Shown here in pieces: positions 6,808 to 58,747 of a stretch of 64,000 nucleotides of DNA. Within the stretch, counting starts at the first letter, position 1; every line of letters begins with the position of its first letter. A program made the position numbers and the translations under genes. The notes below the pieces were generated by a model that saw only the letters and a list, made by a program, of their open reading frames with translations, made no database searches and had not been told where the DNA came from. Source of the DNA: Candidatus Woesearchaeota archaeon (lineage in GTDB: Archaea > Nanobdellota > Nanobdellia > Woesearchaeales > JAHWIC01); NCBI GenBank assembly GCA_019322805.1, contig JAHWIC010000003.1, forward strand, positions 964-64,963. The letters are read 5' to 3'.

Positions 6808-6874
6808 AAAACGCGAAGAAATAAGTTGATATTTATAGTTTTCTATTTGTTAAGTTGATTTCAATTTTGAATAT

Positions 6875-7015
6875 AATCATTAGAAAAATCATCAATAGGA
6901 AAAAAATCAATAAACGAAAAAAATAATTCTGATTTTTGCTTTATTCCTTTACTTAAAGCAAATCAGAATTATTTTTTTAATGATATTTCTTTTTAATGAT
7001 TTAATTTTTCTATTG
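6875..7015 (+). repeat. R-element copy R1 (minimal form: A/T-rich arms plus a single hairpin)
   Basis: AATCAATAAAC-type words, then the hairpin AATTCTGATTTTTGC ... GCAAATCAGAATT (6925-6970), then an inverted A/T-rich right arm. Confidence 0.85.
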
Positions 7016-9364: not shown

Positions 9365-9922
9365 ATGGAACGGACAAAGGAAGAAACAGTAGTTGTACTG
9401 GACTTTTTGCCGAATGGCTACCCATTTGACACAAGGCCTATCTACCAGAAAACTGCGATAGCGCAAGCTATAGGCAAGGAGCACTTTGTTTTACTGGAAC
9501 TAGCCCCTAAGAAGGATATCCATTTACAGCCTTATGAGGAGGTTTATATCGGAGAGGGCAAGCGTGACAAGGTGCATCACATAGTTGGAAAGCTTCCTAT
9601 AGATAAACTTACTGCAACAGCAAAGTCTGAGCTGGAATATGTCATAAAGGATATTGTAAATAAAGACGAAAAAAGGTTTGTTGACTTTTTCAATAAGGCA
9701 CAGCCCTTAAGCACAAGAATGCACCAGATAGAGCTTTTGCCAGGCGTTGGAAAGAAGCATATGTGGCAGATAATAGATGCAAGAAAGGAAAAGCAGTTTG
9801 AGAGTTTTAAGGACATAAAGAAGCGCGTTAAGCTTATGCCTGATCCGGAGAAGGCAATCATAAGAAGGATACTTCTGGAACTTCAAGGCAAAGAGAAACA
9901 CAGGTTGTTTGTTGACGTATAA
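9365..9922 (+). CDS. DUF655 (HhH-containing) protein
   Basis: MERTKEETVVVLDFLPNGYP ... LLPGVGKKHMWQIIDAR. The start is set at the ATG at 9365, because the upstream part of the ORF-track frame runs through the hairpin array. Confidence 0.8.
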   Translation: MERTKEETVVVLDFLPNGYPFDTRPIYQKTAIAQAIGKEHFVLLELAPKKDIHLQPYEEVYIGEGKRDKVHHIVGKLPIDKLTATAKSELEYVIKDIVNKDEKRFVDFFNKAQPLSTRMHQIELLPGVGKKHMWQIIDARKEKQFESFKDIKKRVKLMPDPEKAIIRRILLELQGKEKHRLFVDV

Positions 9923-9964
9923 CAAAGGAGTAAATTATCAATAAATAATTCCTTTGTTATGCCG

Positions 9965-9983
9965 GGAGGCACGAAGTGTCTCC
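9965..9983 (+). terminator. GAA-triloop hairpin between convergent genes
   Basis: GGAGGCAC-gaa-GTGTCTCC, 8 bp including one G-T (G-U) pair on the + strand. It lies between the DUF655 stop and the stop of the minus-strand ORF. Confidence 0.4.
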
Positions 9984-9991
9984 GTGTCTAA

Positions 9992-10204
9992 TCATTCTTC
10001 TTCAGACATTTCTTCATCATCAGAGACTCCTTCCTCCATAGCGTCTGCAATCAGGCTGACCACTTTCTTTGACTGCTTTTCTATCCTCTGAAGGTAATCC
10101 ACATCTTGGAACTGCTCTACAGCACATTCCTTACAATAGGATTCAGAACTCCCTTTAATGCAATATTCAGCCTCTTTCTCGCACAGTATGCACTTTTTTG
10201 GCAT
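9992..10204 (-). CDS. Small zinc-ribbon protein with acidic tail
   Basis: 70 aa. CILCEKEA ... CKEC (CxxC...CxxC) and a D/E-rich C-terminus. Confidence 0.5.
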   Translation of the reverse strand: MPKKCILCEKEAEYCIKGSSESYCKECAVEQFQDVDYLQRIEKQSKKVVSLIADAMEEGVSDDEEMSEEE

Positions 10205-11089: not shown

Positions 11090-11463
11090 GTGTTTTGATG
11101 GACGATGATATAAAGTTTAGATGTCCTTACTGCGGGAAATTAACCAGGCCTCATGAGAGGTATTGTGATTTCTGTGAGCAGGACTTATCAAAGGTCAGGG
11201 ATAAGTTAGAGGCAGAAGGAAGAGAAAAAGCCTGCTTTATAGCAACTGCAGCTTATGGGACTCCTTTTGCAAGAGAGATTGATGTTTTGAGGGACTGGAG
11301 GGATAACAGTTTGAATACAAATTTTTTTGGTTCTTTGTTTGTTAAGGTTTATTATAAAGTGAGCCCTCCTATTGCGAGATTTATAGCAAAGAGGAAAAAA
11401 TTAAGGAAGTTGGTTAGGATTATCTTAAAACCAATAATCAGTATCATTAGAAAAAATCAATAG
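11083..11463 (+). CDS. Zinc-ribbon protein with CFIATAAYG...LRDWRD motif domain
   Basis: CPYCG...CDFC zinc ribbon, then CFIATAAYGTPFAREIDVLRDWRD and a hydrophobic tail. The last codons and the stop lie inside R-element R2. Confidence 0.6.
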   Translation: MQGVLMDDDIKFRCPYCGKLTRPHERYCDFCEQDLSKVRDKLEAEGREKACFIATAAYGTPFAREIDVLRDWRDNSLNTNFFGSLFVKVYYKVSPPIARFIAKRKKLRKLVRIILKPIISIIRKNQ

Positions 11464-11629
11464 AAAAAAATAAATCTGATTTTTGCCTTAAGTCTACTAT
11501 AAAGCAAAAATCATCTGCAGTGTTTCTTAAAGAACCAAACTAAGATGAAAATTCCTTTATACCAGTTGTGAAAGGAATTTTCAGAATTATTTTTTTAATG
11601 AATTTCTCTATTGATTTTTTTTATTGATT
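11443..11629 (+). repeat. R-element copy R2 (canonical short form with four-way-junction core 11475-11585)
   Basis: TCTGA|TTTTTGC-17nt-GCAAAAA|TCATCT-26nt-AGATGA|AAAATTCCTTT-12nt-AAAGGAATTTT|TCAGA, flanked by imperfect inverted AATCAATAG/AAAAA words. Confidence 0.9.
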
Positions 11630-11634
11630 ACTTC

Positions 11635-12012
11635 CTATCTCTTTTCCAAAACCTGAGCATTGCCTTCCACTTCAATAAAAGTCACTTCATCTCCCTCGTT
11701 AAGCTCATTAAGCAGCTCTTCATCGACATCAGCATCCATGGTTTGATAAGAATGCATATCCATGATCTGAACTTTATCAGCTAGCTTTGAGATAACCTGT
11801 GCTGATTTTCTTATGATGTCAAGCTCTTCTACATTATCATGATGATTGAGGTTTATTGATTTCTCGCCCTTGCTAATCAGGCCCTGGACAAACAGCTTTG
11901 TCTTTGAATGAGAATGGGTTCCGTAAGCAACTGTCTCTTTTCTTACAACCCTAAGAACCTCATTGTTATATTTGATATAGCTTCCTTTTCGCAAGTCTTT
12001 TGCTTCTGTCAT
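11635..12012 (-). CDS. eif5a: Translation initiation factor 5A (aIF-5A)
   Basis: 125 aa. LRKGSYIKYNNEVLRVV ... GTHSHSKTKLFVQGL and the C-terminal OB-like half match the eIF5A/EF-P fold pattern. Confidence 0.8.
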   Translation of the reverse strand: MTEAKDLRKGSYIKYNNEVLRVVRKETVAYGTHSHSKTKLFVQGLISKGEKSINLNHHDNVEELDIIRKSAQVISKLADKVQIMDMHSYQTMDADVDEELLNELNEGDEVTFIEVEGNAQVLEKR

Positions 12013-12065: not shown

Positions 12066-13181
12066 TTATTCCTTTATGCCTATAGCGTATTTATACCATC
12101 CAAAATCTCTTAGGATTCTTTCATCCTCAAATCTGACAATCTTTTCAAAGGATTCCCACCGCTTCATACTCAATTCTATAGAAGGAGGAGGAGCGTCTTT
12201 TTCAATACGCCCATCATATATCTGAACTGCGGCTTTGGTGCAAAAAGCTTTATTAACAACAGATGGTGCAAGGGATACTCCGCTATATTCTATTACATGA
12301 AGACCAGCATGCTCAAAAAGCGCTGGAAGGTCAACGTTATCTTTATATGGGTCAGGATAAAGGAATGGGAGAATCATCTTGTACCAGGGTGTCTCTTGTT
12401 CAGCTTCTCTTGAAGCTTGATATAATGGACTATCAAAATTAGGAACAGCTACTACAACCATGCCTCCTTTGCCTGTTTGTTCTACCATAATCTCAATTAG
12501 CCTTTTTTGCTCCTCTGTGGTTAAGTGTTCAAAAACACCGCTGTTCATTGCTATTGTATATTCACCTCCGCTTTTATACCTTAGTATGTCTTTTTTGTGA
12601 GGGGTAACACGGTCTTTTGCTTCAAATTGATGTTCTGCAAGGAACGAAGCATAGCGTAGGGCACCCATGGATAAGTCAACAATATCTGCTAGAAATCCAT
12701 GATAAGCTAGCATATTTGAGAGAGTAGCACTTCCACAGCCTAGCTCAACACTTCTAGGCGGCCATGAACCTAATGTTTTCTTATTCCAATGTTTTAGAAT
12801 TCTATCCACAAGCCGCATATACATGTATGCTCTTCCAGGCAGGAATTCGTGGTACCCTTTGTCCAGGTGCAGGAAATGATGGTAAGAGGCTTTTTGAGCT
12901 GCCCAATGTTGGTCCATATTTCTTTGCCGCTCTCTAGCTTGGTCACTCTTATATAGGGGTGAGATAACGTCATCTAGCCATTCTCTTGTACTGGACTGCA
13001 CTGCTAATAGGATAGGATGAGGTCCTTTTTCAGCATCAGCTGCGTCATTCCCTCCACTAGCGATAACAATCTCAGAACTTTTTCTTGGCAATACTAGGGG
13101 TCTTAGTATCTCTTCTAATTCCTCAGGGCTTCTTTTCTCATTATGGCCCCCCAACAATTTTGTTAGCCCTCTAACTGTCAT
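12066..13181 (-). CDS. Class I SAM-dependent methyltransferase
   Basis: VELGCGSATLS (motif I) and downstream motifs, with a long N-terminal extension of unknown function. Confidence 0.7.
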   Translation of the reverse strand: MTVRGLTKLLGGHNEKRSPEELEEILRPLVLPRKSSEIVIASGGNDAADAEKGPHPILLAVQSSTREWLDDVISPLYKSDQARERQRNMDQHWAAQKASYHHFLHLDKGYHEFLPGRAYMYMRLVDRILKHWNKKTLGSWPPRSVELGCGSATLSNMLAYHGFLADIVDLSMGALRYASFLAEHQFEAKDRVTPHKKDILRYKSGGEYTIAMNSGVFEHLTTEEQKRLIEIMVEQTGKGGMVVVAVPNFDSPLYQASREAEQETPWYKMILPFLYPDPYKDNVDLPALFEHAGLHVIEYSGVSLAPSVVNKAFCTKAAVQIYDGRIEKDAPPPSIELSMKRWESFEKIVRFEDERILRDFGWYKYAIGIKE

Positions 13182-13290
13182 ATGTTGATAGGTAGTGATT
13201 GTGCATTTAAAAATCTTTCTATTTATCTATTATTATGTAGTAGTAAAAAAAGGAAAAAGTTTAATAATAACAATGCATTCACTTTTGTAG

Positions 13291-14918: not shown

Positions 14919-15099
14919 CCTTATAATTTAATAGTTTTATATAATCGGATTAGGAATCTATTAAACTATATAAATCTTTTCATTTTCTATAAAATTGGCT
15001 GTTTTATATAACTTTTATAAAATCTAAGGCATAACTATATAAAAAATGAGCTATTATATAGGTATATCCCGTAAACCTTACGGGATAATAAGGGGGGTG

Positions 15100-15279
15100 T
15101 TGGTAGAGTTCGAAAATAATGATTAAATCTATGCTATGAAAATAGCAAAAGATGAATCATTAAAAATTTAATGACAAATCAATGCTGGAAACAGCAAAGA
15201 CGAATCATTAAAAAAATGATTAAATCTATGTTGGAAACAACAAAAGATGAATCATAAAAAAAACAAAAAACTCTACCAA
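15100..15279 (+). other. Structured domain: 11-bp closing helix enclosing three tandem GAAA-tetraloop hairpins (candidate ncRNA)
   Basis: TTGGTAGAGTT (15100-15110) pairs with AACTCTACCAA (15269-15279). The hairpins at 15119-15160, 15171-15208 and 15216-15255 have apical stems TGCTAT/ATAGCA, TGCTG/CAGCA and TGTTG/CAACA. A separate 10-bp hairpin lies at 15065-15087. Confidence 0.7.
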
Positions 15280-15696
15280 GAACCCTTATCAAATGATGCA
15301 CAGAGGATGTTTAGATGATCAAGAAGGTGAAAAAGAAAATGGAAAAAGAAGAAAGTTTGGAGGACATTGGCATATCTTTATCTTCAGACCCTTTAGATAA
15401 GATGGGTGAGTTCAGAGCTAAATAATGGAGGCAAAGGAATAAAAAAACCGATCTGAAAAACATAAAATTCCATAATCATTGGGTCTAGTCTCAACTCAAT
15501 GATGCAAAAATCCTACCAAGGGATTTTTGTTTTAAAAACTAGTGGCCTAAAAAACCATAAATGGAATTTTAATGCACCAAGATTCAATTTTGAGGAGCTC
15601 AAAAAAACAAAAAATTTTGGCAAACTCAAAAAAATCTTTAGGAGCGGTTTTCCTTTCCCCCACTTAATGCTGAATGAAAAGGAGGAGGCAATAAAA

Positions 15697-21910: not shown

Positions 21911-22696
21911 ATGGAATTAGATGAAGCAAAGATTTCAAAAGCAATTATAGATAGCTATCATAAAAAACTTACAAAAATCCTAGATGCAGATGTAGCAATT
22001 GCAGGAGCAGGTCCTGCTGGCCTGACAGCAGCCTATTATCTTGCTAAGAAAGGAATAAAGGTAGTTGTTTTCGAGAAGAAGCTGTCCCCTGGAGGAGGGA
22101 TGTGGGGCGGCGGAATGCTGTTTAATGAGATTGTTGTGCAGGAAGACGGCAAAAAGATGCTGGACGAGTTTGGAATAAAATATGAAAAATATTCTGAACA
22201 TTACTATACTGCAGATTCAGTAGAAACAATATCAACAATCTGCTCAAAAGCTGTGAAAGCAGGAGCTTTGCTCTTTAATTGCATCTCTGTAGAGGATGTG
22301 ATCTTAAAGCAGGGCAAGATTCATGGCTTAGTTATTAACTGGACACCAGTTGATATGGCTAAGCTGCATGTAGACCCGCTTGCAATTAAAAGCAAATATG
22401 TTATAGAAGCAACAGGGCATCCTTTGGAGGTTCTTACAGTGATAGAGAAGAAGTGCGGCGGAAAGATGTTTACTGAAACCGGTAAGATAATCTGGGAGAA
22501 ATCAATGGACGCTACTCAGGGTGAGAAAGACTGCGTTGAGTATACTAAAGAGGTTTTTCCTAATGTTTTTGTCGCAGGGATGGCAGCAAATGCAGCTTTT
22601 GGAAGGCCAAGGATGGGTCCTATTTTTGGCGGAATGCTGCTTTCCGGGAAAAAGGTTGCTGAAATGTTGATAGAAAGATTGAAGGGAAAGGAATAA
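21911..22696 (+). CDS. thi4: Thiazole synthase Thi4 (archaeal/eukaryal type)
   Basis: [22 protein letters not shown] ... [17 protein letters not shown] is present at the position of the yeast active-site Cys region. Confidence 0.9.
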
Positions 22697-23080
22697 TCAA
22701 TTCAAAAATTCAATAAAAAAATCATCATTAGGAGAATAATCAATAGAAGAAAAATAAACGGAAATCAGGATTTCCTAGTTGCGCTCGCTTCGCTCGGCAA
22801 CAATCTGATTTTTGCTTTCTTCTCTTCGTTAAGGCAAAAATCGTCTTAAGTGGTTCTTTAAGAAACAGAATAAGACGAAAATTCCTTTATCGCGATGAAG
22901 AAAGGAATTTTCAGATTGTGTATAAATTATGAAATAATTTACTACACTAGAAAAATGTGTTAGCATTTTTCGTTGATTAATTGTTATTAAATAAAACTAA
23001 AGGGCATCAACCGAAACAAACGCACAACTGATTGTGATGGATGAAATTTAACCTAATGATAAATTAAATTGATAGTTAAA
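22695..23080 (+). repeat. R-element copy R3 (long form; core 22804-22915)
   Basis: The same module order as R2, plus three additions: a 5' hairpin module GGAAATC/GATTTCC, an extra hairpin GAAAAATG/CATTTTTC, and a right-hand module ending at the thiE ATG. Confidence 0.9.
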
Positions 23081-23713
23081 ATGAAAAAAGAGAAACTGCA
23101 AGACATTGACCTTTATTTTATAACAGACAGCGAACTCACCAAGAAAACTGTTCTTGACGATGTTAAGGCAGCTATAGCTGGTGGAGTGAAGATAGTCCAA
23201 TACCGCGAGAAAGAGAAATCAACAAAAGAGATGATTGAGGAAGCGCAGAAAATCAAAGAGATTTGCGGCGATGATGTAATATTCCTGATTGATGACAGAG
23301 TCGATGTTGCACTTGCAGTTGGCGCTGATGGTGTTCATCTTGGCCCTGATGATATGCCTTATGGAGCTGCAAGGAAATTGCTTGGAGACGATAAGATAAT
23401 TGGTTTAACTGCTCGTGATGTCGAAGGAGCAGTTAAAGCAGAAAAACTGGGTGCAGATTATGTTGGTATTGGCCCGATATATGAAACAGCAACAAAGCTG
23501 AGTGCTGGAGAGCCTGTTGGTATAGAGATGATAGAAAAGGTTAAGAATGCAATAAGTATCCCTTTTGTAGCTATTGGCGGGATTAATTACAGGGACCTTG
23601 ATAGTGTGTTAGAGGCAGGAGCAACCAAGGTTGCTGCAATATCTGCAATTGTTGCAGCAGATGATGTTGAAAAAAAGGTTAAGAGGTTTATTGACAGATT
23701 ATCTTTCCACTAG
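23081..23713 (+). CDS. thiE: Thiamine-phosphate synthase
   Basis: LYFITD, VHLGPDD and IGPIYETATK motifs. The start is taken at the ATG at 23081. Confidence 0.9.
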   Translation: MKKEKLQDIDLYFITDSELTKKTVLDDVKAAIAGGVKIVQYREKEKSTKEMIEEAQKIKEICGDDVIFLIDDRVDVALAVGADGVHLGPDDMPYGAARKLLGDDKIIGLTARDVEGAVKAEKLGADYVGIGPIYETATKLSAGEPVGIEMIEKVKNAISIPFVAIGGINYRDLDSVLEAGATKVAAISAIVAADDVEKKVKRFIDRLSFH

Positions 23714-29282: not shown

Positions 29283-29672
29283 ATGCAGTACAGCAAAAAG
29301 GTCGTAGAACACTTTAGGAATCCGCACAACATGGGTGAGATAAAGAACCCAGATGGTATAGGTAAGGTAGGCAATCCTATATGCGGCGATGTCATGTGGA
29401 TTTATATAAAGGTGGGAAAGAATAAAAAAGGACAAGAGATAGTCAAAGACATTAAGTTCAAAACCTTTGGCTGTGCAGCTGCAATTGCAACCTCTTCTAT
29501 GACTACTGATTTAGCTAAAGGGAAGACTCTAGATGAAGCAATGAAGCTGACAAGGGATGATGTAAAGAATGCTCTTGAAGGTTTGCCTCCTATCAAAATC
29601 CATTGCAGCAACTTAGCAGCAGATGGTTTGCATAAGGCAATTGAAGATTACAGAAAGAAATCAAAGAAATAA
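29283..29672 (+). CDS. iscU: Fe-S cluster scaffold IscU/NifU-like
   Basis: GNPICGD, FKTFGCAAAIA and HCSNLA motifs (three cluster-ligand cysteines). Confidence 0.9.
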   Translation: MQYSKKVVEHFRNPHNMGEIKNPDGIGKVGNPICGDVMWIYIKVGKNKKGQEIVKDIKFKTFGCAAAIATSSMTTDLAKGKTLDEAMKLTRDDVKNALEGLPPIKIHCSNLAADGLHKAIEDYRKKSKK

Positions 29673-30022
29673 TCCAATAAAAGAAATCATTTTAAAAAAT
29701 CAATAAAAACAAAAAATAAATCTGATTTTTGCCTTAAGTCTACTATAAAGCAAAAATCATCCGCTTCTGTTTCTTAAGAAACAGAACAAGATGAAAATTT
29801 AGTAAACGCAACTATTTTATGAAAGATTGCGTTTACTATTTAGTAAGCGAAACTATTGATTATATAATTTCGCTTACTATAACCTTTACAGTGGTTCTGA
29901 AAGGAATTTTCGGAATGATTAATTGTTTTAAAATTTAAATTAAAGTGATGAAAAACAACCATATGCACGACTAATTGTAATAGATGAAATTTAACCTAGT
30001 GATAAAATAAATTGATGATAAA
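29671..30022 (+). repeat. R-element copy R4 (long form; core 29721-29914 with nested twin-hairpin insertion 29799-29882)
   Basis: The same modules as R2. Arm 3 is interrupted by TAGTAAACGCAA...TTGCGTTTACTA and TAGTAAGCGAAA...TTTCGCTTACTA. The right-hand module ends at the ATG at 30023. Confidence 0.9.
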
Positions 30023-36849: not shown

Positions 36850-36910
36850 ACAACCACTCCCCAAAGAAGATATTATCCTTGATGTATTTAAAATTTTCTT
36901 ATTTATTCAT

Positions 36911-36924
36911 GCAAACCTTTAAAT
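36911..36924 (+). promoter_or_regulatory. BRE/TATA-like promoter element (GCAAACCTTTAAAT)
   Basis: Identical to the 14-mer at 1144-1157. The TATA-like part begins 31 nt upstream of the ATG at 36949. Confidence 0.5.
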
Positions 36925-36948
36925 ATTGACTATATTTTTCTATTCGTA

Positions 36949-37050
36949 ATGAAACGAAGCTCAAGACGCTGGAAGAAGAAAGGCCAGATGCGCTGGAAGT
37001 GGCAGCGCAAGAGAATGAAGAAAGAGAAAAGAAAGAGAGCAAAGGTCTAA
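36949..37050 (+). CDS. rpl41e: Ribosomal protein L41e-like micro-ORF (33 aa)
   Basis: My translation is MKRSSRRWKKKGQMRWKWQRKRMKKEKRKRAKV. It is extremely basic and matches my recollection of archaeal L41e (KRSSRRWKKKGRMRWKW...). Confidence 0.5.
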   Translation: MKRSSRRWKKKGQMRWKWQRKRMKKEKRKRAKV

Positions 37051-41010: not shown

Positions 41011-42297
41011 ATGAAGAATGAATTGTTTGAGATGGTAGAGGGCTATGATTCTATCTCCAGGTCAATAAAGATGATTAATAAGGCTGCCGGGATAATTGGT
41101 CTGGATGAGGGCCAGATGCTGGACATTATTCAGCCGCATGACATAAGGGTATATAAGTTGCACCTTAAGCTCTTTGGCAAGAGTTTCGACATCTGGGGGT
41201 GCACTTCACTCCATAATAAGTCAAGAGGCTTATATAAGGGAGGAGTAAGGATTGCGCCTGACGTAAATATCTTTGAGGTTGTTGAGCTGAGCAGACTCAT
41301 GACTATAAAAACTGCCTGCGTCGATTTAGAATTTGGTGGCGCTAAGACAGGAATACGATTTGATATGAAAGGTGCATACAAAACATTTGGTATAGACAAG
41401 TATGACCCTGACTTTGAGACTAATATTAAACGTGAGATTCTGCACGAGTTTGCGCATCATTTCAGTAATCTTCTTAGGTCAAATGAGTATGTCCCTGCAC
41501 CAGATATAGGGACAAATCCATTGGATATGGCAGCTATATTTAACGAAACAAACAACCCTTCAACAGTAACTGGTAAACCTGAAGGTATGCCTGGTTGGCT
41601 TCCGGGAAGGAACGAAGCTACAGGTTATGGAGTTACTGAGTGTACAATAGACTTGCTCAATGATTTATCTATAGAGCCTAAGAATGCCACAGCCGCAGTT
41701 CAGGGTTTTGGAAATGTAGGTATGCATACAGCCAAATTCTTATCAGAAAAAGGGGTAAAAGTGGTGGCAATAGCTGACATAGGCGGGGCACTATACAACC
41801 CAGAAGGATTTAACATTGGGAAATTAGCAGAATATGCTGCAAAAAACGGCACAATAAAAGGATTCCCAGCAAAGGATATAACCAATGAAGAATTCTTTGC
41901 ACTGGATGTTGATGTTTTGATTCCTGCGGCAATAGGCAATGTAATCAGAGAGGACAATGTTGAATCAATAAGAGCTAAAGGGATTGTAGAAGCAGCTAAC
42001 ATGCCTGTTCATTACAAGGCTGAAAGGATCTTAGCGCAGAAAGGCGTGAAGATGATACCTGATATAATAGCTAATGCTGGGGGTGTGATTGCTTCTGGTG
42101 AAGAATACTCTAAATCTTTGTCGGCTAAATATATGAAAAAAGAAGAGACTTATTCAATGATAACCCAAAGAATTATAAATAATCTGAATTTGGCAAAAGA
42201 TATTGCAAAGGAGCATGATGCCACTCTGAACCTGGCATGTTATATTCTTGCATTAAGGAGGATTTGCCATGCGCATAGTATAAGGGGATGGAGATAG
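41011..42297 (+). CDS. Glu/Leu/Phe/Val dehydrogenase family protein (glutamate dehydrogenase-like)
   Basis: KGGVRIAP, GGAKTGI and QGFGNVG (Rossmann) motifs. Confidence 0.8.
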   Translation: MKNELFEMVEGYDSISRSIKMINKAAGIIGLDEGQMLDIIQPHDIRVYKLHLKLFGKSFDIWGCTSLHNKSRGLYKGGVRIAPDVNIFEVVELSRLMTIKTACVDLEFGGAKTGIRFDMKGAYKTFGIDKYDPDFETNIKREILHEFAHHFSNLLRSNEYVPAPDIGTNPLDMAAIFNETNNPSTVTGKPEGMPGWLPGRNEATGYGVTECTIDLLNDLSIEPKNATAAVQGFGNVGMHTAKFLSEKGVKVVAIADIGGALYNPEGFNIGKLAEYAAKNGTIKGFPAKDITNEEFFALDVDVLIPAAIGNVIREDNVESIRAKGIVEAANMPVHYKAERILAQKGVKMIPDIIANAGGVIASGEEYSKSLSAKYMKKEETYSMITQRIINNLNLAKDIAKEHDATLNLACYILALRRICHAHSIRGWR

Positions 42298-42618
42298 ATG
42301 AGCACAAAAACACTAGAAAAACTAAGAGGTTTTGAGAAAGAGCAAGAGCAAAGGTTAGAGCAGATACAAGCTGATTCTTTAAATGAAATAGAAAAGGCAA
42401 GGAAGGATATCGATAAAAAACTAAAGGAAGAGGAGGAAAAACTCCAAAAAAAGAAAGAAGCCTCAGTAGCAAAAGCAAAGGAAGAAGCAAATAGGGAATC
42501 CAGGGAAATCACTAAGGAATATAAGAAAAAGGCGGAACAACTGGAGAAGAAATCTTCTAAGAATTTCAAAAAAGCGGTTGATAAGCTTTTTTCAATAGTT
42601 CTAGAGAAAAATGTTTAG
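42298..42618 (+). CDS. atpH: A-type ATP synthase subunit H
   Basis: 106-aa charged coiled coil at the first position of the HIKECFABD order. It overlaps atpI by 8 nt. Confidence 0.6.
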   Translation: MSTKTLEKLRGFEKEQEQRLEQIQADSLNEIEKARKDIDKKLKEEEEKLQKKKEASVAKAKEEANRESREITKEYKKKAEQLEKKSSKNFKKAVDKLFSIVLEKNV

Positions 42619-45042: not shown

Positions 45043-45058
45043 AATTTTTCAGTGACAT

Positions 45059-45077
45059 TAAATCTCGAAGAGATTTA
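45059..45077 (+). terminator. GAA-triloop hairpin just after atpK
   Basis: TAAATCTC-gaa-GAGATTTA starts 17 nt after the atpK stop. Confidence 0.35.
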
Positions 45078-45105
45078 TGGCGCTCAAAGAAAAATTTTAT
45101 CTTTG

Positions 45106-45229
45106 ATCCTCCCCACTAGTGCACAAGGAGAACGCCATAAATTGCTGACGCAATTTAATTTCACAGTGCCCCTCCCCTAACAAATCTGTTAGAGGTACGC
45201 AACTAAATTAGAGGAATGGAAAATGCAAG
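45106..45229 (+). repeat. B-element copy 2
   Basis: 45106-45182 matches 10976-11052 with 2 mismatches. The tail is GCAACTAAAT, then a 14-nt insert, then ATGCAAG. Confidence 0.9.
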
Positions 45230-45359
45230 CATACTCACTAGCGTTCGTAGCTTACATTTTTTAACATAAGAAAAGGTGAAGTAAAAAATGCAAGCATACT
45301 CACTAGCGTTCGTAGCTTACATTTTTTAACATAAGAAAAGGTGAAGTAAAAAATGCAAG
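45223..45359 (+). repeat. Perfect 65-bp tandem duplication (2 full copies plus first 7 nt of a third, which is the atpE start)
   Basis: 45223-45287 is identical to 45288-45352. Each copy carries ATGCAAGC..., a 13-codon ORF (MQAYSLAFVAYIF) and the AAAAGGTGAAGTAAAAA SD region. The third ATGCAAG at 45353 starts atpE. Confidence 0.95.
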
Positions 45360-45892
45360 TATTCGGTAACGTTGAGGCTTTGAAAAAGGCTATCGAGAAG
45401 AGATACTCTTCGATGGTTAAGGATGTAGAGAAGGATAAGGAAAACCAATTAGCAGAGATAAATGAAGAGCTAAAGGAAAAAATAGGATTGTTAAAGGCCC
45501 ATATGAAGACAAATATTGATGCAGAGGTTAAAAAGACGCATTCAATGATATTGAGTGCTGCGAGGTTAAATGCAAAAAAGGAATTTGAGGAAAAGAGAGA
45601 AGCAATAATTGAATCTGTTTTTAGGGAAGCAGAGAAAGGAGCAAAGGACATTGCGCATACAGCTGAATACATAGGTTTTGTCAAGAAGAATATATCAAAA
45701 ACAAAAGGCTTGACAGTTATAGGGGATAGTGATTATTATAAGGACTCCTTTCCTGGCCTGAAAATTGATAAGGGTATCATAGGATTGAAATTCAAATCAG
45801 AGGAAGTTGTTTATGATTTTGCACTGGATAATATAATTGCTTCAAAAAAAGATGTGTTAAGGCATGAGGTAAGTAAAGTACTCTTTAGTTAA
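45353..45892 (+). CDS. atpE: A-type ATP synthase subunit E
   Basis: 179 aa, with a charged helical N-terminus and a globular C-terminus, in the operon position after K. Confidence 0.8.
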   Translation: MQVFGNVEALKKAIEKRYSSMVKDVEKDKENQLAEINEELKEKIGLLKAHMKTNIDAEVKKTHSMILSAARLNAKKEFEEKREAIIESVFREAEKGAKDIAHTAEYIGFVKKNISKTKGLTVIGDSDYYKDSFPGLKIDKGIIGLKFKSEEVVYDFALDNIIASKKDVLRHEVSKVLFS

Positions 45893-47078: not shown

Positions 47079-47353
47079 TTGTTTTAGGAAATCCAGAGTT
47101 TGTAACAGGGATGAAGTTAGCAGGCATTAAAGACAGCTATGTGATAAGAAAAAGGGAAGAAGCATTAGAGCTGCTAAGAAAGACTGGCAAAAAGGAGTTC
47201 ATTTTAGCTAATGTCAGTGTTATTAAGCTTGTTCCTGAGCTAGAGGGGTTTAGGAATGTTGTCAGTGTTCCGGATGATGCTAAGGAATTTTCAAGCACAG
47301 ATGATTTAAAGGATATTATTAAGTCGGCAGTGGGCATCGAGTTGAATATTTAG
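47075..47353 (+). CDS. atpF: A-type ATP synthase subunit F
   Basis: 92 aa with a 4-nt overlap with atpC. MIVLGNPEFVTGMKLAGI is typical of subunit F. Confidence 0.8.
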   Translation: MIVLGNPEFVTGMKLAGIKDSYVIRKREEALELLRKTGKKEFILANVSVIKLVPELEGFRNVVSVPDDAKEFSSTDDLKDIIKSAVGIELNI

Positions 47354-47665
47354 AAATAAATCAATAAGAAAGAATCAATGGGAAAAATCAATAAACACAA
47401 AAAAATAATCTGATTTTTGCTTTATAATCCACATTAAGGCAAAAATCATCATCCGTCTTTCCTTTAAGTATACATTAAAGGAAGGGAAGAGGATGAAAAT
47501 TCCTTGAGCGTGGTTGTGAAAGGAATTTTCAGAATGATTAGTTGCCATTAAATGATTAATTTGATATGATAAAAACAAACAAATGCGCAACAAATTGTGC
47601 ATGCATATCAACACCCAATGATCAAAATCAATGATGATAATTAAAAACAAATCAATGGTGATATT
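47354..47665 (+). repeat. R-element copy R5 (long form; core 47409-47533) between atpF and atpA
   Basis: It fills the whole 312-nt atpF-atpA spacer. The right-hand module contains the hairpin GCGCAA-caaa-TTGTGC (47585-47600) and ends with AATGGTGATATT-ATG. Confidence 0.9.
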
Positions 47666-49438
47666 ATGGGAAAGATTGTGAAGATCGCAGGACCGGTTGT
47701 GGTAGCCAAGGAAATGAAAGGCAGCAAGATGTATGATGTTGTCAGGGTTGGAGAGGAAAAATTAATCGGAGAGATTATCCAGCTTAATGGGGATAAAGCA
47801 ACAATCCAGGTTTATGAAGACACAACAGGCGTTAAGCCAGGTGAAGAGGTTACATCAACAGGAGCTCCTTTGAGTATAGAGCTAGGGCCTGGTTTGTTAA
47901 GAAGCATCTATGATGGAATTGCAAGGCCTCTGCCTGATATTGCAGAGATTTCTGGTGATTTTATCTCTCGCGGTATAGAGGTTCCTTCATTAGACAGGAA
48001 AAAGAAATACAATTTTATCAGCAGGGTAAAGCCTGGACAAGAGCTAACAGGCGGGCAGATAATAGGAACTGTCAAAGAGACAGATGTTATTGATCACCAG
48101 GTGTTATTGCCGCCAAATCTTTCTGGTAAGGTTACGAACATCAATGAAGGAGAGAAAACAATTGAAGAGCCGGTCATAACCTTAGAGACAAAAGAGGGCA
48201 GCATTGATGTTAAGATGTATCAAAAGTGGCCGGTAAGGATACCAAGGCTTTCTAAAGAAAAGCTAGACCCAACTATCCCGTTGATTACAGGACAAAGGGT
48301 CTTTGATACGTTCTTTCCAATTGCTAAGGGTGGAACAGCAGCTATTCCCGGGCCGTTTGGAGCCGGTAAAACTGTTTCGCAGCAGCAGCTTGCTAAATGG
48401 GTTGATGCAAATGTTATCGTCTATATTGGCTGCGGTGAAAGAGGAAACGAAATGACAGAGGTATTGGATGAATTTCCTAAGCTTACTGACCCGAAATCAG
48501 GAAAGCCATTGATGGAAAGGACTGTTTTGATTGCAAACACATCAAATATGCCAGTTGCAGCAAGAGAGGCCTCTGTTTATACTGGTGTTACAATAGCTGA
48601 GTACTTTAGAGACATGGGTTATGATGTTGCTTTGATGGCAGACTCAACATCGAGATGGGCAGAAGCAATGAGAGAAATCTCCTCAAGACTTGAAGAAATG
48701 CCTGGTGAGGAAGGCTATCCTGCTTATCTCGCATCAAGGTTGGCACAATTCTATGAAAGAGCTGGCAGGGTTGTTACACTAAATGAGCAAAATGGAAGTG
48801 TATCAATTATTGGAGCTGTTAGCCCGCCTGGTGGTGATTTTTCTGAGCCAGTTACACAAAATACCTTAAGAATGACAAAGGTGTTCTGGGCATTGGATGC
48901 TCCATTAGCATATAGAAGGCACTTCCCTGCAATTAACTGGCTGACTTCTTATTCATTATATACCGGCAAGGTCGCACATTATTTCGATGATATTGCAGCT
49001 GATTTTTCTTCTTTAAGGGCAAAAGCAATGAGCTTACTGCAGAAAGAAGCAGAGTTAAGGGAGATTGTTCAGTTAGTGGGGCCTGATGCACTGCCTGAAG
49101 AGGACAAGCTTGTTTTGGATACAGCAAAGTCATTAAGGGAGGATTTCTTGCAGCAGAATGCCTATCACGAGGTTGATACCTTTTGTGCTATTGAGAAGCA
49201 GCATTTGATGCTAAAGACAATCCTTGATTTCCATAATACGGCTTTAGAGACAATAAGGAAAGGGGTAAAGGTAAGGGATATCATAGGATTTGAGGTAAAG
49301 GAGAAGATAGCCAGGATGAAGTACATCAAGGATATTAAAAAAGAGGTTGAAGGAATTACAAAAGAGGTTAGTGCGCAAATGAAAAAACTGCAAAGCACAG
49401 TATCAGAGCTCTCTGCTGCAGCAGAGGGAGGGCAGTAA
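47666..49438 (+). CDS. atpA: A-type ATP synthase catalytic subunit A
   Basis: Walker [21 protein letters not shown] and [10 protein letters not shown]. No intein. Confidence 0.97.
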
Positions 49439-50953: not shown

Positions 50954-51562
50954 ATGAAGATCAAACCAACCCGGATGGGTTTGCTGTTAACGAGAAAGAA
51001 GTTAAAGATAGCAAAAAAAGGGCACAAATTACTGAAGCAAAAGAGGGATGTTCTTATTTTGGAATTCTTTCAGGTACTGAAGGAAATAAAACAGCTGAGA
51101 AAACAAATCTCTGGAAATCTGATAAAGGCTCAGGGCTCACTTTATAATGCGCAGGCAATTGAGGGCGAGCTGAATATAGAAAGAACAGCCTTGGGCTTGT
51201 CTTCAGGAGCTGCAATAGACCTTTCATCAAGGTCTATAATGGGTGTTGAGGTTCCTGTGATAAGGAATATTGAAGTAGAGCACCAATGGCATGGCTATTT
51301 TGGGCAGACTGTTGAGCTTGATAATGCAGTAAAACAATTCAGGGATATATTTCCTGAACTGATAAGACTGATGGAAAAGCAGCTGATGCTTAAACATCTT
51401 GCAGAGGAGATAAAGAAGACAAAAAGAAGGGTTAATAGCCTGGAGTATCTGACGATACCTGGGTTGGAAGATATAAAAAAGATTATCACGTTTAAATTAG
51501 AAGAACTTGAAAGAGAGAATTTCAGCAGGCTAAAGAAGATAAAGAAGACAACAGCAAAATGA
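50954..51562 (+). CDS. atpD: A-type ATP synthase subunit D
   Basis: MKIKPTRMGLLLTRKKLKIAKKGHKLLKQKRDVL is a typical subunit D N-terminal helix. Confidence 0.9.
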   Translation: MKIKPTRMGLLLTRKKLKIAKKGHKLLKQKRDVLILEFFQVLKEIKQLRKQISGNLIKAQGSLYNAQAIEGELNIERTALGLSSGAAIDLSSRSIMGVEVPVIRNIEVEHQWHGYFGQTVELDNAVKQFRDIFPELIRLMEKQLMLKHLAEEIKKTKRRVNSLEYLTIPGLEDIKKIITFKLEELERENFSRLKKIKKTTAK

Positions 51563-51699
51563 GGCCAAAACAGAAAAAAGAGGCAGAGAAAAGGGCCAGA
51601 CAATTCCTTTTGCTGACAACTGCAAGGATTGTTGCTGAGATTACAATCATTATTGGGTTTTTTATTGTCATATATTTTTTGATTAGAAAATATGTGTAA
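51559..51699 (+). CDS. Small hydrophobic ORF (46 aa) translationally coupled to atpD
   Basis: ATGA overlap with the atpD stop. My translation is MRPKQKKEAEKRARQFLLLTTARIVAEITIIIGFFIVIYFLIRKYV: a basic N-terminus plus one TM helix. Confidence 0.35.
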   Translation: MRPKQKKEAEKRARQFLLLTTARIVAEITIIIGFFIVIYFLIRKYV

Positions 51700-52337: not shown

Positions 52338-52386
52338 TTTAGTATTAAGAAAACAACATCTCTTTTTAAATTTATCTCTAAAATAT

Positions 52387-52758
52387 AAATCAATAAAAAC
52401 AATTATCATTAAAAAATCAATAAAAACAAAAAATAAACGGGAATCAAAGATTCCTTAGTAGGGCTTGTTTCACTCGGCAACAATCTGATTTTTGCCCCAA
52501 ATCAATTTGAAAAAATTCAATAAACGAAAAATAATAAATAGGATTTTTGCTTGATATTCAACAGTAAAGCAAAAATCATCTACAGTGTTTCTAAAGAACC
52601 AAACTAAGATGAAAATTCCTTGAGCGTGGTTGTGAAAGGAATTTTCGGATTTATTAATTGTTATTTAATAAAAATTAAAGAAATAAAAACACAACCAAGT
52701 GCGCAACTAATTGTGCATACATTCCAGCACCCAGTGATAATATCAATAAAACCCTTAA
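52387..52758 (+). repeat. R-element locus R6 (truncated copy interrupted by a complete copy; core 52540-52649)
   Basis: A 5' module as in R3 and TCTGATTTTTGC (52484-52495) are followed by a new left arm (AATCAATTTG...AATAAACGAAAAA) and then a full core and right-hand module. Confidence 0.9.
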
Positions 52759-54284: not shown

Positions 54285-54425
54285 TGGGGCCGCCGTGACT
54301 TTCATGCCATAATTCCTTTCAGGGATTAACGGCGTTCGAACACGGGTTGGAAGCTATCCTGAGCAAAAGGAAACGCCTTAAGCAGTCCCCGAGCTCCAGT
54401 CATAGCCAAACTAGACCACGGCCCC
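54285..54425 (-). tRNA. tRNA (Pro-like acceptor/T arm) with a 36-nt T-loop insert and an unresolved 38-nt anticodon region
   Basis: Minus strand: GGGGCCG-UG-GUCU-AGUUUGGCUA-UGAC-U-GGAGC-[38 nt]-GCUUC-CAAC-CCGUG-UUCGAA[36 nt]U-CACGG-CGGCCCC-A. The acceptor, D, anticodon and T stems pair. UCGGGGA follows the anticodon stem. A T-run follows the 3' end. Confidence 0.6.
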
Positions 54426-54530
54426 AAGTAAAGCAAAAATAACCCTATCCTGCTTATTAATTTTTTTATTTTACATACCGAAAATTATATATAATGCTTT
54501 ACAAGGTATATGCACTAAAAGAGGATTAAC

Positions 54531-58073: not shown

Positions 58074-58448
58074 TTGGATAAAATGGGCATATTTGTTGTT
58101 CAAAAACATAAAGCAACTCACTTGCACTGGGACTTTCGTTTAGAGCTTGATGGCGTCTTAAAATCTTGGGCTGTTCCGAAAGAGCCGCCTAAAGCAAAAG
58201 GAATAAAGAGGCTGGCTATAAAAGTAGAAGACCATGAGCTTGATTATGCAGGGTTTGAAGGAACAATCCCAGAAGGAATGTATGGTGCAGGAACTGTTAA
58301 GATCTGGGATAAAGGAACTTACGAATTAAAGGAAAAAGCCAAAGATAGGCTTGTTTTTGAGCTAAAAGGGAAAAAATTAAAAGGAAGTTATTGCTTAATA
58401 AGGTTTAAGAAGGCTGGAGCAAAGAATTGGTTACTATTCAAGATGTAA
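58074..58448 (+). CDS. LigD-type 3'-phosphoesterase domain protein
   Basis: FVVQKHKATHLHWDFRLELDGVLKSWAVPKEPP ... DYAGFEGTIPEGMYGAGTVKIWDKGTY. The start may be the ATG at 58083. Confidence 0.8.
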   Translation: MDKMGIFVVQKHKATHLHWDFRLELDGVLKSWAVPKEPPKAKGIKRLAIKVEDHELDYAGFEGTIPEGMYGAGTVKIWDKGTYELKEKAKDRLVFELKGKKLKGSYCLIRFKKAGAKNWLLFKM

Positions 58449-58747
58449 TCAATAAAAAGAAACCAATTTGGAAAAATCAATAAAAACAAAAAATCAATCC
58501 GATTTTTGCTTAATGCTCCACATTAAGGCAAAAATCGTTGAAAACCACCTTCGGTGGTTTTTAACGTGCTCAGAAATCATACCTAATGAAATGGATAAGT
58601 ATGATTTCCGACACATCCGCTGTCATTGCTAAAGGAAAAGAAGAGGATGAAAATTCCCTTATGGTGGTTGTGAAAGGAATTTTCAGATTAAATTTTTATT
58701 GTTTTTTTGTTTATTGATTTCAGATTAAGGAATGATGGTGATAAAAT
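58447..58747 (+). repeat. R-element copy R7 (short TIR-bounded form with expanded arm 2; core 58498-58687)
   Basis: Arm 2 carries CGTTGAAAACCACC-ttcg-GGTGGTTTTTAACG (a UUCG loop) and GAAATCATAC...GTATGATTTC. The right arm TTTTATTGTTTTTTTGTTTATTGATT is an inverted copy of the left words. Confidence 0.9.

Follow-up and report, generated by a model that had tools for sequence, protein, structure and literature searches.

A copy of a dispersed, structured repeat family at the atpF-atpA junction of a Woesearchaeota ATP synthase operon

The window analysed here is a 64,000-nt stretch (38% GC) of contig JAHWIC010000003.1 from a Candidatus Woesearchaeota archaeon (GenBank assembly GCA_019322805.1), and it carries, with gdh directly upstream, an A-type ATP synthase operon in the order atpHIKECFABD. 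A protein search with AtpA found its closest named relatives in 'Candidatus Woesearchaeota' and Nanoarchaeota (DPANN) metagenome-assembled genomes. Subunits I, K, C, F, A, B and D have Pfam matches; no Pfam match was found for H (42298-42618) or E (45353-45892), and these two were assigned from position and conserved gene order. The open reading frame (ORF) coordinates reproduced exactly all eight junction sizes given in the initial annotation, i.e., an 8-nt overlap (H/I), 23 nt (I/K), 310 nt (K/E), 1 nt (E/C), a 4-nt overlap (C/F), 312 nt (F/A), 1 nt (A/B) and 14 nt (B/D). Our subject is the 312-nt F/A spacer between atpF and atpA (Table 1), in which no gene is called in other assemblies and which is occupied by an element, here named R5, belonging to a multi-copy family of structured repeats (the R family).

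As had been claimed, R5 sits immediately past the atpF stop, its first AATCAAT box beginning 6 nt after the TAG, at 47359. Three such boxes lead into an A7 tract, which is an oligo-T tract on the antisense strand, and then into a core that folds as a four-helix junction (helices P1 to P4), at whose centre GA/UC dinucleotides, read directly from the sequences, permit a 2-bp extension of either P1/P3 or P2/P4. Downstream of the core lies a 'long-form' 3' module, common in our alignment to R5 and ~19 other copies, in which CCCAATGAT (47614-47622) pairs with box 2, ATCAATGGG (47374-47382), as a long-range pairing of the minimum free energy (MFE) structure that amounts to a 9-nt terminal inverted repeat. 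Folded as a whole, the spacer has a z-score of -5.6 on the + strand versus -2.9 on the - strand. The 3' end of the spacer does read ...AAATCAATGGTGATATT-ATG when checked against the sequence; the accompanying statement that R5 fills the spacer entirely was wrong, as the element proper stops at ~47623-47636 and the final ~29-42 nt resemble a native spacer. The R5 insertion is not an assembly artefact: the whole spacer is identical in two ENA assemblies (L207 and L209), and a Logan contig (L208) is identical to R5 up to the contig end, inside the element. Two Logan contigs break off within R5, as expected because it is a repeat.

Several candidate features of the spacer were rejected. A 91-aa minus-strand ORF (47375-47650) is spurious: it is uncalled in any other assembly, consists of repeat sequence and has no conserved counterpart in the shorter copy of the relative L081. 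The likeness of box 2 (ATGGGAAAAAT) to the atpA start of relatives, which might be taken for a target duplication, is a coincidence, since copy 7 has the same variant (CCAATTTGGAAAAATCAAT) and it is thus family sequence. A kissing interaction between the P4 loop (GUGGUUGUG) and CACAACC of the 3' module has 7-10 nt of complementarity in a few copies and is missing in R5 and most long forms. Lastly, weak ATGATGA/CTGA strings that would invite a C/D-box reading had scores far from the threshold, and the four-helix fold agrees better with the pairing data.

That the F/A spacer holds a repeat-family copy, as proposed in the initial annotation, was borne out by a blastn search of R5 against the window, in which six more copies turned up, every one on the + strand; with an nhmmer profile and a covariance model (R1) the total came to six full cores, R5 included (11468, 22797, 29714, 47402, 52532 and 58491), and one truncated copy (6921). 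The copies are 120-390 nt long, with cores of 120-200 nt at 27-36% GC and P3 lengths in discrete classes (~30, 34, 40, 47, 110 and 177 nt), and about one-fifth of the intergenic spacers in the window hold one. AATCAAT itself has 45 matches in the window versus 26 +/- 4.8 expected, the surplus sitting in R copies. A metagenome scan with a P4 hairpin pattern identified at least 114 loci, and among the matches listed at least 59 (at least 51 of them distinct) had the full P2...P4 architecture; these loci came mostly from the metagenomes JGI2171J19970, Ga0209427, Ga0209636 and SMTZ1, and as two contigs were 99-100% identical to the window, much of this set represents the same population or close relatives. 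A pattern match in a viral contig (L089) was an isolated hairpin without the rest of the element and, at 28 bits, a chance match, and a search of phage DNA with R5 gave no match. Rfam 15 had nothing at gathering level in the whole window, the best match within 47300-47720 (E<=10) being far under thresholds at 18.8 bits (E 2.4).

The fold is a property of the family: over 47 aligned cores the four helices are 94.4% paired, versus 36-64% when the partners are slid. Two-sided changes affect eight pairs and 31 cells, figures reached by 12/500 and 0/500 shuffles, respectively; examples are a U-A to G-C replacement in P2 of five copies and a P3 pair that is U-A in 17 and C-G in 13. Most stem positions are invariant among these cores, with the qualification that nine P4 base pairs were preset by the search pattern. 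G.U and A.C mismatches were about equally frequent, which fits a structured master sequence whose copies are decaying and gives no RNA-strand signature. The flanks have 2-4 boxes of the type (A)ATCA(A/T)T...AAAAA on the 5' side. On the 3' side, short forms carry T runs and then inverted boxes, and long forms carry their module, whose own end consists of inverted box variants (CTAATGAT, AAATTGAT). Two short forms in the window have extended terminal inverted repeats, with 40-nt arms at 11429-11468/11590-11629 (75% complementarity) and 19-nt arms at 58474-58492/58702-58720 (89% complementarity). Nested, truncated and interrupted copies also occur; for instance, in the copy at 52385-52747 a partial older copy (52385-52500) precedes the complete one. 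Copies sit directly behind the stop codons of upstream genes, and in tandem gene contexts 19 are in sense and 3 in antisense orientation (two-sided binomial ~9e-4); a further nine lie between divergent and seven between convergent genes.

Three observations concern the make-up of particular copies and a possible relation of the family. Nesting recurs at window 52385-52500 and in L096, L143, L092, L173, L190, L196 and L090, with the P1 and P2 5' arms of one copy (...AATCTGATTTTTGCC(TT/CC)) followed directly by the AAATCAAT boxes of a full copy, a pattern that suggests the P2 loop as a favoured site of insertion or as a site of recombination. In the copy that separates iscU from the PP-loop ATPase gene, the 5' arm of P4 contains an insert of ~87 nt (29800-29886) that consists of two related palindromes (TAGTAAACGCAAC...GTTGCGTTTACTA-like) and is yet another small repeat type. 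At ~15110-15300, in a 580-nt spacer (14919-15498), there are three tandem small hairpins (TGCTATGAAAATAGCA, TGCTGGAAACAGCA, TGTTGGAAACAACA), each followed by GATGAATCATTAAAAA; these boxes look like those of the R family, and the array may be a related or ancestral repeat.

A comparison of atpF-atpA junctions among relatives, as the initial annotation had proposed, revealed that F/A is filled, empty or otherwise occupied depending on the relative. As an AtpA scan of genome contigs gave only 58-67% identical relatives (Methanobacteriota, Firmicutes), unfit for comparing junctions, the relatives were taken from a protein search and followed to their encoding contigs. The closest, L081 (AtpA 91% identical), has a short-form family copy in a 240-nt F/A spacer and a second copy at B/D, a junction that is empty in the window. 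F/A is empty in L204 (89%, 24 nt), L082 (87%, 30 nt) and L085 (84%, 29 nt). In L084 (85%) it is 147 nt long and holds a different element, of a CCTCCCCACTAG...CCCACCCC type also found at K/E, and in L087/L088 (87%) it is 221 nt long and holds a third, unrelated long hairpin. The covariance model found no family copies in the ~10-kb flanks of L082-L088 or in L204. The insertion at F/A is thus polymorphic, and the idea that related genomes never have this element inside operons fails on the L081 copies at F/A and B/D, as it does on the window copies between thi4 and thiE and between iscU and the PP-loop ATPase gene.

In the alignment, empty F/A sites have the form ...TAA-(AT-rich)-AATGGTG(A/G)T-N3-7-ATG, and AATGGTGATATTATG is retained in both the window and L081, which puts the insertion point between the atpF stop and the native spacer. 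It had been proposed that R5 supplies the only Shine-Dalgarno (SD)-like sequence of atpA. GGTGAT is indeed the sole SD-like hexamer in the gap; however, since the relatives with empty spacers (L082, L085 and L204) already have AATGGTG(A/G)T, it is the ancestral SD of atpA and not a contribution of the element. L084 has an element of the CCTCC(CC)ACTAG...CCCACCCC type in both C/F (9463-9574) and F/A (9854-10000), and third element types occur in L087 (8533-8753) and in L082 at B/D (13146-13279); the ATPase spacers of this clade have thus repeatedly received structured elements, of at least three different kinds. The unrelated elements in F/A of L084 and L087 fit recurrent insertion into a permissive spacer.

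The two F/A copies, in the window and in L081, bear on whether R5 has a function in the host. Between the window and L081, identity is ~78% in coding DNA and 57% at 4-fold sites, which is a saturated level; the two F/A cores are 64% identical with conserved stems and randomised loops. The L081 F/A copy ranks 36/46 in similarity to R5, many paralogs being closer (78-79%), and at saturated neutral sites this rank is compatible with both common descent and independent insertion of the two copies. A rival reading, which we consider unlikely, is that R5 is an exapted intercistronic RNA, a co-transcribed four-helix junction that could act as a 3'-exonuclease barrier, a processing site or a protein-binding platform; as a barrier or processing site it could make the atpHIKECF and atpABD segments independent of each other in stability and stoichiometry. 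REP/BIME elements (repetitive extragenic palindromes and the mosaic elements built from them) in the E. coli malEFG mRNA are an analogue. The near invariance of P1, P2 and P4 next to saturated loops, the 19:3 sense bias, the position directly behind stop codons, the occupation of one junction in two lineages and the much better folding of the + strand (where the covariance model also scores 45-50 bits higher) all speak for such a role. It is countered by the absence of the element from F/A in the close relatives L204, L082 and L085, by the unrelated inserts in L084 and L087, by the copies between divergent and convergent genes, by the lack of a G.U over A.C excess and by an L081 copy that is no closer to R5 than random paralogs; moreover, the element's own propagation needs can explain the conservation of its stems. 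A wider proposal, to which we likewise give low odds, is that the family is a new class of archaeal structured RNA, with a near-perfect four-helix junction, a 2-bp branch-migratable centre and protein- or ribosome-binding AAUCAAU boxes, spread through about one-fifth of the spacers of a Woesearchaeota lineage and embedded in mRNAs, that of the ATPase included, to control stability, processing or segmental expression, its stems being under host-level selection.

The initial annotation had offered two alternatives for expression, that a long structured RNA is co-transcribed within the ATPase mRNA or that the element splits the operon and re-drives atpABD. We assessed these with a promoter consensus derived from 16 sites in the organism's own genome, mostly in divergent spacers; it reads (R)AAAC(C)-TTTAAATA and lies ~25-60 nt ahead of start codons. 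The 16 seeds scored 8.5-18.5 bits with the resulting matrix, and ~10 further non-seed sites of 9-16 bits were correctly placed before the first genes of transcription units. Just two sites emerged on the + strand between 40900 and 52800: the gdh promoter (40954) and, within the 3' end of gdh, a 9.4-bit site at 42172 that is conserved in L081, where its counterpart (210-228) scores 13.0 bits. This second site, inside gdh, is probably a separate promoter of the atp operon. From atpH to the end of atpD every + strand score stayed under 8 bits. R5 itself peaked at 6.3 bits, below all 16 seeds, and the two intra-operon copies of L081 (F/A and B/D) scored 2.0 and 3.6 bits. No promoter-like sites precede thiE and the PP-loop ATPase gene, which lie behind other long-form window copies and are functionally linked to their upstream genes (thi4 and iscU). 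As for termination, R5 does not have an oligo-T terminator: its sole T5 is in a P2 arm (47414-47418) and the longest T run in its flanks is 3, while T5-T6 runs occur ~17 times within the atp coding sequence. Runs of T>=6 are found on the sense strand in 11% of long forms and on the antisense strand in 89%; in short forms they occur on both strands (61% and 77%), and many short-form copies carry T6-T8. Taken together these signals favour transcription through R5, and they suggest selection against antisense, terminator-bearing insertions in operons. Of the two alternatives, co-transcription is thus the better supported, because of the stable fold, the lack of a match to the transcription factor B recognition element (BRE)/TATA box matrix and the lack of oligo-T beyond coding-sequence levels, and the splitting of the operon finds no support in the sequence.

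The splitting model itself, in which the core with a T-rich flank would terminate transcription after atpF and a promoter and leader in the long-form 3' module would re-drive atpABD, strikes us as improbable. Several long-form 3' modules do end exactly at start codons (those of thiE, the PP-loop gene, L092, L101 and L202), a conserved ATTAAAG/TTTAAATT stretch lies ~25 nt upstream of a conserved GTGCRCAAC in these modules, and short forms have T6-T8 runs after the core. In R5, however, the TATA-like stretch is degenerate (CCATTAAATG), the module reaches only the sub-seed score given above, and no T run of 4 or more follows the core. Some long-form modules (window 52385-52747, L152 and L146) point towards convergent genes, a setting in which a promoter would serve no purpose, and the short forms inside the L081 operon have no module at all, yet the indispensable atpA, atpB and atpD lie downstream of these promoter-less copies and must be expressed. 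Still more doubtful, and in our judgement very improbable, is a family of stand-alone small RNA genes, each with its promoter among the boxes, oligo-T after P1 and a four-helix RNA of ~130 nt as its product, the F/A copy being a nested gene. The compact, stable and conserved fold would suit such a gene, and in some copies ATCAATTTAAAAAA lies ~28 nt before P1 and T runs follow P1 directly. But the TATA-like box is not conserved (R5 reads ATCAATGGGAAAAA), the box region of R5 scores at most 5.8 bits, just one weak match (9.4 bits) occurs in any window copy, the T run is missing in R5 and other long forms, Rfam has no match, and modular, nested and truncated copies with terminal inverted repeats are typical of repeats and not of small RNA genes.

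We therefore prefer, with moderate confidence, to regard R5 as a copy of a non-autonomous repeat resembling miniature inverted-repeat transposable elements (MITEs) or REP, tolerated within the operon and co-transcribed in the atp mRNA, with atpA keeping its native SD; R5 appears not to be a new control switch. The proposed course of events is as follows. A copy of a lineage-restricted, multi-copy, non-coding and modular family, in which arrays of AATCAAT boxes surround a four-helix core with optional modules, would have moved to a position just past the atpF stop and upstream of an ancestral spacer of ~25-30 nt, which would keep the SD of atpA. Transcription from the promoter in the 3' end of gdh would run straight through R5, the atp mRNA would then hold a highly structured intercistronic insert of ~250 nt, and atpA would be translated from its native SD. 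The insertion would be tolerated, because a long-form copy in sense orientation carries neither a promoter nor a strong oligo-T terminator, and would probably be neutral or nearly so.

Several points weigh against this reading. We infer read-through from the absence of signals, and the matrix rests on only 16 sites, so that non-canonical promoters would escape it. No consistent target-site duplication was found in the flanks of several copies that have clear inverted repeats, or between filled and empty F/A and B/D sites, TA or TTAA being possible; no transposase is present among the 10 genes adjoining the window copies, the rest of the window and genome not having been searched; and R5 itself has only its 9-nt terminal inverted repeat. 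Replication-strand-specific insertion could equally give the orientation bias. The L081 copies have T5 and T7 runs on the sense strand, so being T-poor inside an operon is not a general rule. Finally, the stems are almost invariant across genomes that are saturated at 4-fold sites, which could reflect host-level selection on RNA or DNA structure and not neutrality; this near invariance makes a functional RNA role (in stability or processing) or a role at the DNA level possible.

Prokaryotic MITEs, including the Correia elements (CREE/NEMIS) of Neisseria, have been reviewed (PMC3184786, PMC2229807). The R family is likewise small, non-coding and dispersed in many copies, its short forms have terminal inverted repeats (40 nt and 19 nt) and inverted boxes are found family-wide, and its insertions differ between related genomes (F/A and B/D). 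Correia elements and R copies are both AT-rich and 100-300 nt in size, both lie in intergenic spacers, including those inside operons, with presence or absence differing between close relatives, and both would be co-transcribed with their neighbours into strongly folded RNA, as is known for Correia elements and presumed for R5. In contrast to such elements, the R family has no recognisable target-site duplication or known cognate transposase, its ends are arrays of 2-4 AATCAAT boxes instead of one long inverted repeat, its core is a four-helix junction instead of a single long hairpin, it is strongly orientation-biased, and its host is a DPANN archaeon. Like the REP/BIME elements of enterobacteria, R copies are extragenic structured repeats that follow stop codons, lie between cistrons, and cluster and nest; REP/BIME are transcribed within mRNAs and can stabilise the upstream segment. 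REP, however, is a GC-rich single palindrome of ~35 nt with a GTAG head, mobilised by RAYT, whereas the R family is AT-rich with four helices and box arrays, and no GTAG head was found in its cores. BOX of Streptococcus pneumoniae and ERIC/IRU of enterobacteria share with it conserved 5' and 3' modules around variable internal modules, a predicted stable structure and an intergenic, often co-transcribed position, but are unrelated in sequence, have bacterial hosts and lack a four-way junction or periodic box arrays. MIRU of Mycobacterium tuberculosis similarly inserts in operon spacers, abutting or overlapping the upstream stop with the downstream cistron still expressed, but consists of 40-100-nt direct tandem repeats with tiny ORFs for translational coupling and has no inverted repeats or complex fold. 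The IS200/IS605-derived PATE have subterminal hairpins, no inverted repeats, no target-site duplication and strand-specific insertion, with a TnpA(Y1)/TnpB partner; the strand bias of the R family (all window copies on +) and the lack of a visible target-site duplication recall them, whereas its clear inverted repeats do not.

Table 1. Coordinates of R5, its parts, the neighbouring atp features and the other family copies in the window
Feature	Position	Strand	Basis or remarks
Truncated palindromic copy, boxes and P2 only	6870..7000	+	blastn, profile, covariance model
Short form, 40-nt terminal inverted repeats, between convergent genes	11428..11640	+	
Long form, extra 5' and 3' modules, between thi4 and thiE	22695..23080 (blastn ~22688-23081)	+	
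Long form between iscU and PP-loop ATPase gene; P4 interrupted	29667..30022	+	
Probable atp operon promoter, BRE/TATA-like, inside gdh 3' end, ~125 nt before atpH	42163..42181	+	matrix 9.4 bits
atpF, 92 aa	47075..47353	+	ORF list, Pfam ATP-synt_F; stop TAG 47351-47353
atpF/atpA spacer, 312 nt	47354..47665	+	R5 element and residual native spacer
5' array, three AATCAAT boxes (47359, 47373, 47386), period 13-14 nt, then A7	47359..47392	+	
Four-helix-junction core	47406..47540	+	MFE = centroid, -48.5 kcal/mol, z -6.5; covariance model 116.6 bits
P1	47406-47410/47536-47540	+	
P2	47411-47424/47435-47448	+	
P3	47451-47494	+	
P4	47495-47530	+	
'Long-form' 3' module: AATTGTT.., ATTAAAG.., GCRCAAC-AATTGTG hairpin (47583-47602), CCCAATGAT (47614-47622)	47541..47623	+	alignment of 19+ long-form copies
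Probable residual native F/A spacer, SD GGTGAT (47657-47662) 3 nt before ATG	47637..47665	+	empty-site relatives L082, L085, L204
atpA, 590 aa	47666..49438	+	ORF list, Pfam
Long form behind CBS-domain gene downstream of atp operon, convergent with minus-strand gene	52385..52747	+	
Short form, 19-nt terminal inverted repeats, enlarged P3; first box overlaps upstream TAA stop	58446..58722 (blastn ~58447-58720)	+	

Other features of the operon and the window deserve mention. Gene calls in public assemblies start atpA at GTG 47678 (586 aa); we prefer ATG 47666 (590 aa) because homologues are 589-594 aa long and a conserved ATGGGAAA with the SD before it supports this start. A 46-codon ORF (~51559-51699) overlaps the end of atpD by 4 nt, has no Pfam match and is called in all relatives examined, with counterparts in L205 (4056-4196), L082 (13888-14028), L084 (13820-13960) and L085 (13906-14046); it may encode a small, conserved protein that goes with the ATPase operon. 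In the K/E spacer (window 45043-45352) lies another conserved element that is unrelated to R5, consisting of a hairpin and, after it, CCTCCCCACTAGTGC ... CCCCTCCCC ... CAACTAA, which is present at K/E of the window, L081 (3091-3222) and L082 (7703-7850), with the L207 locus at 1034-1278. Behind it lies a 65-nt unit bounded by a 10-nt direct repeat, AAAATGCAAG, that duplicates the start codon and first codons of atpE, so that each unit makes a 13-codon decoy ORF with its own AAGGTGAAG SD; there are two such units in the window, one in L207 (an independent assembly from this population) and none in L081 or L082. Outside the operon, a GC-rich island of ~180 nt (~54295-54470; closing stem GGGGCCGCCG...CGGCCCC) in a 326-nt divergent spacer looks like a structured non-coding RNA gene, with no Rfam match even at E<=1. 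At 36900-37050 there is a tiny ORF rich in arginine and lysine (MKRSSRRWKKKGQMRWKWQRKRMKKEKRKRAKV), similar to ribosomal protein L41e, with a strong promoter-like site ahead of it (36918, 17.9 bits); the ORF is too short to appear in our ORF lists, which have a minimum of 50 aa.

Elements of this kind are already known from bacteria and some archaea; the R family, its four-helix core and its abundance in a DPANN lineage appear to be undescribed in the resources searched, and the literature on DPANN and Woesearchaeota repeats or non-coding RNAs yielded nothing matching the R5 family. In practical terms the family breaks short-read assemblies, as seen in the Logan contigs, and inflates 'intergenic' length, and automated annotation could mistake its copies for regulatory RNAs or operon boundaries. 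The cellular genomes of DPANN archaea are among the smallest and most compact, and for such a genome a structured repeat in so large a share of the window's intergenic spacers is unexpected. With copies inside essential operons and gene pairs, i.e., those for ATP synthase, thiamine and Fe-S/sulfur-relay functions, such genomes evidently still tolerate or exploit proliferating non-coding elements. If the four-helix junction were selected as RNA, the family would amount to a new RNA motif of archaea, available in dozens of natural variants.

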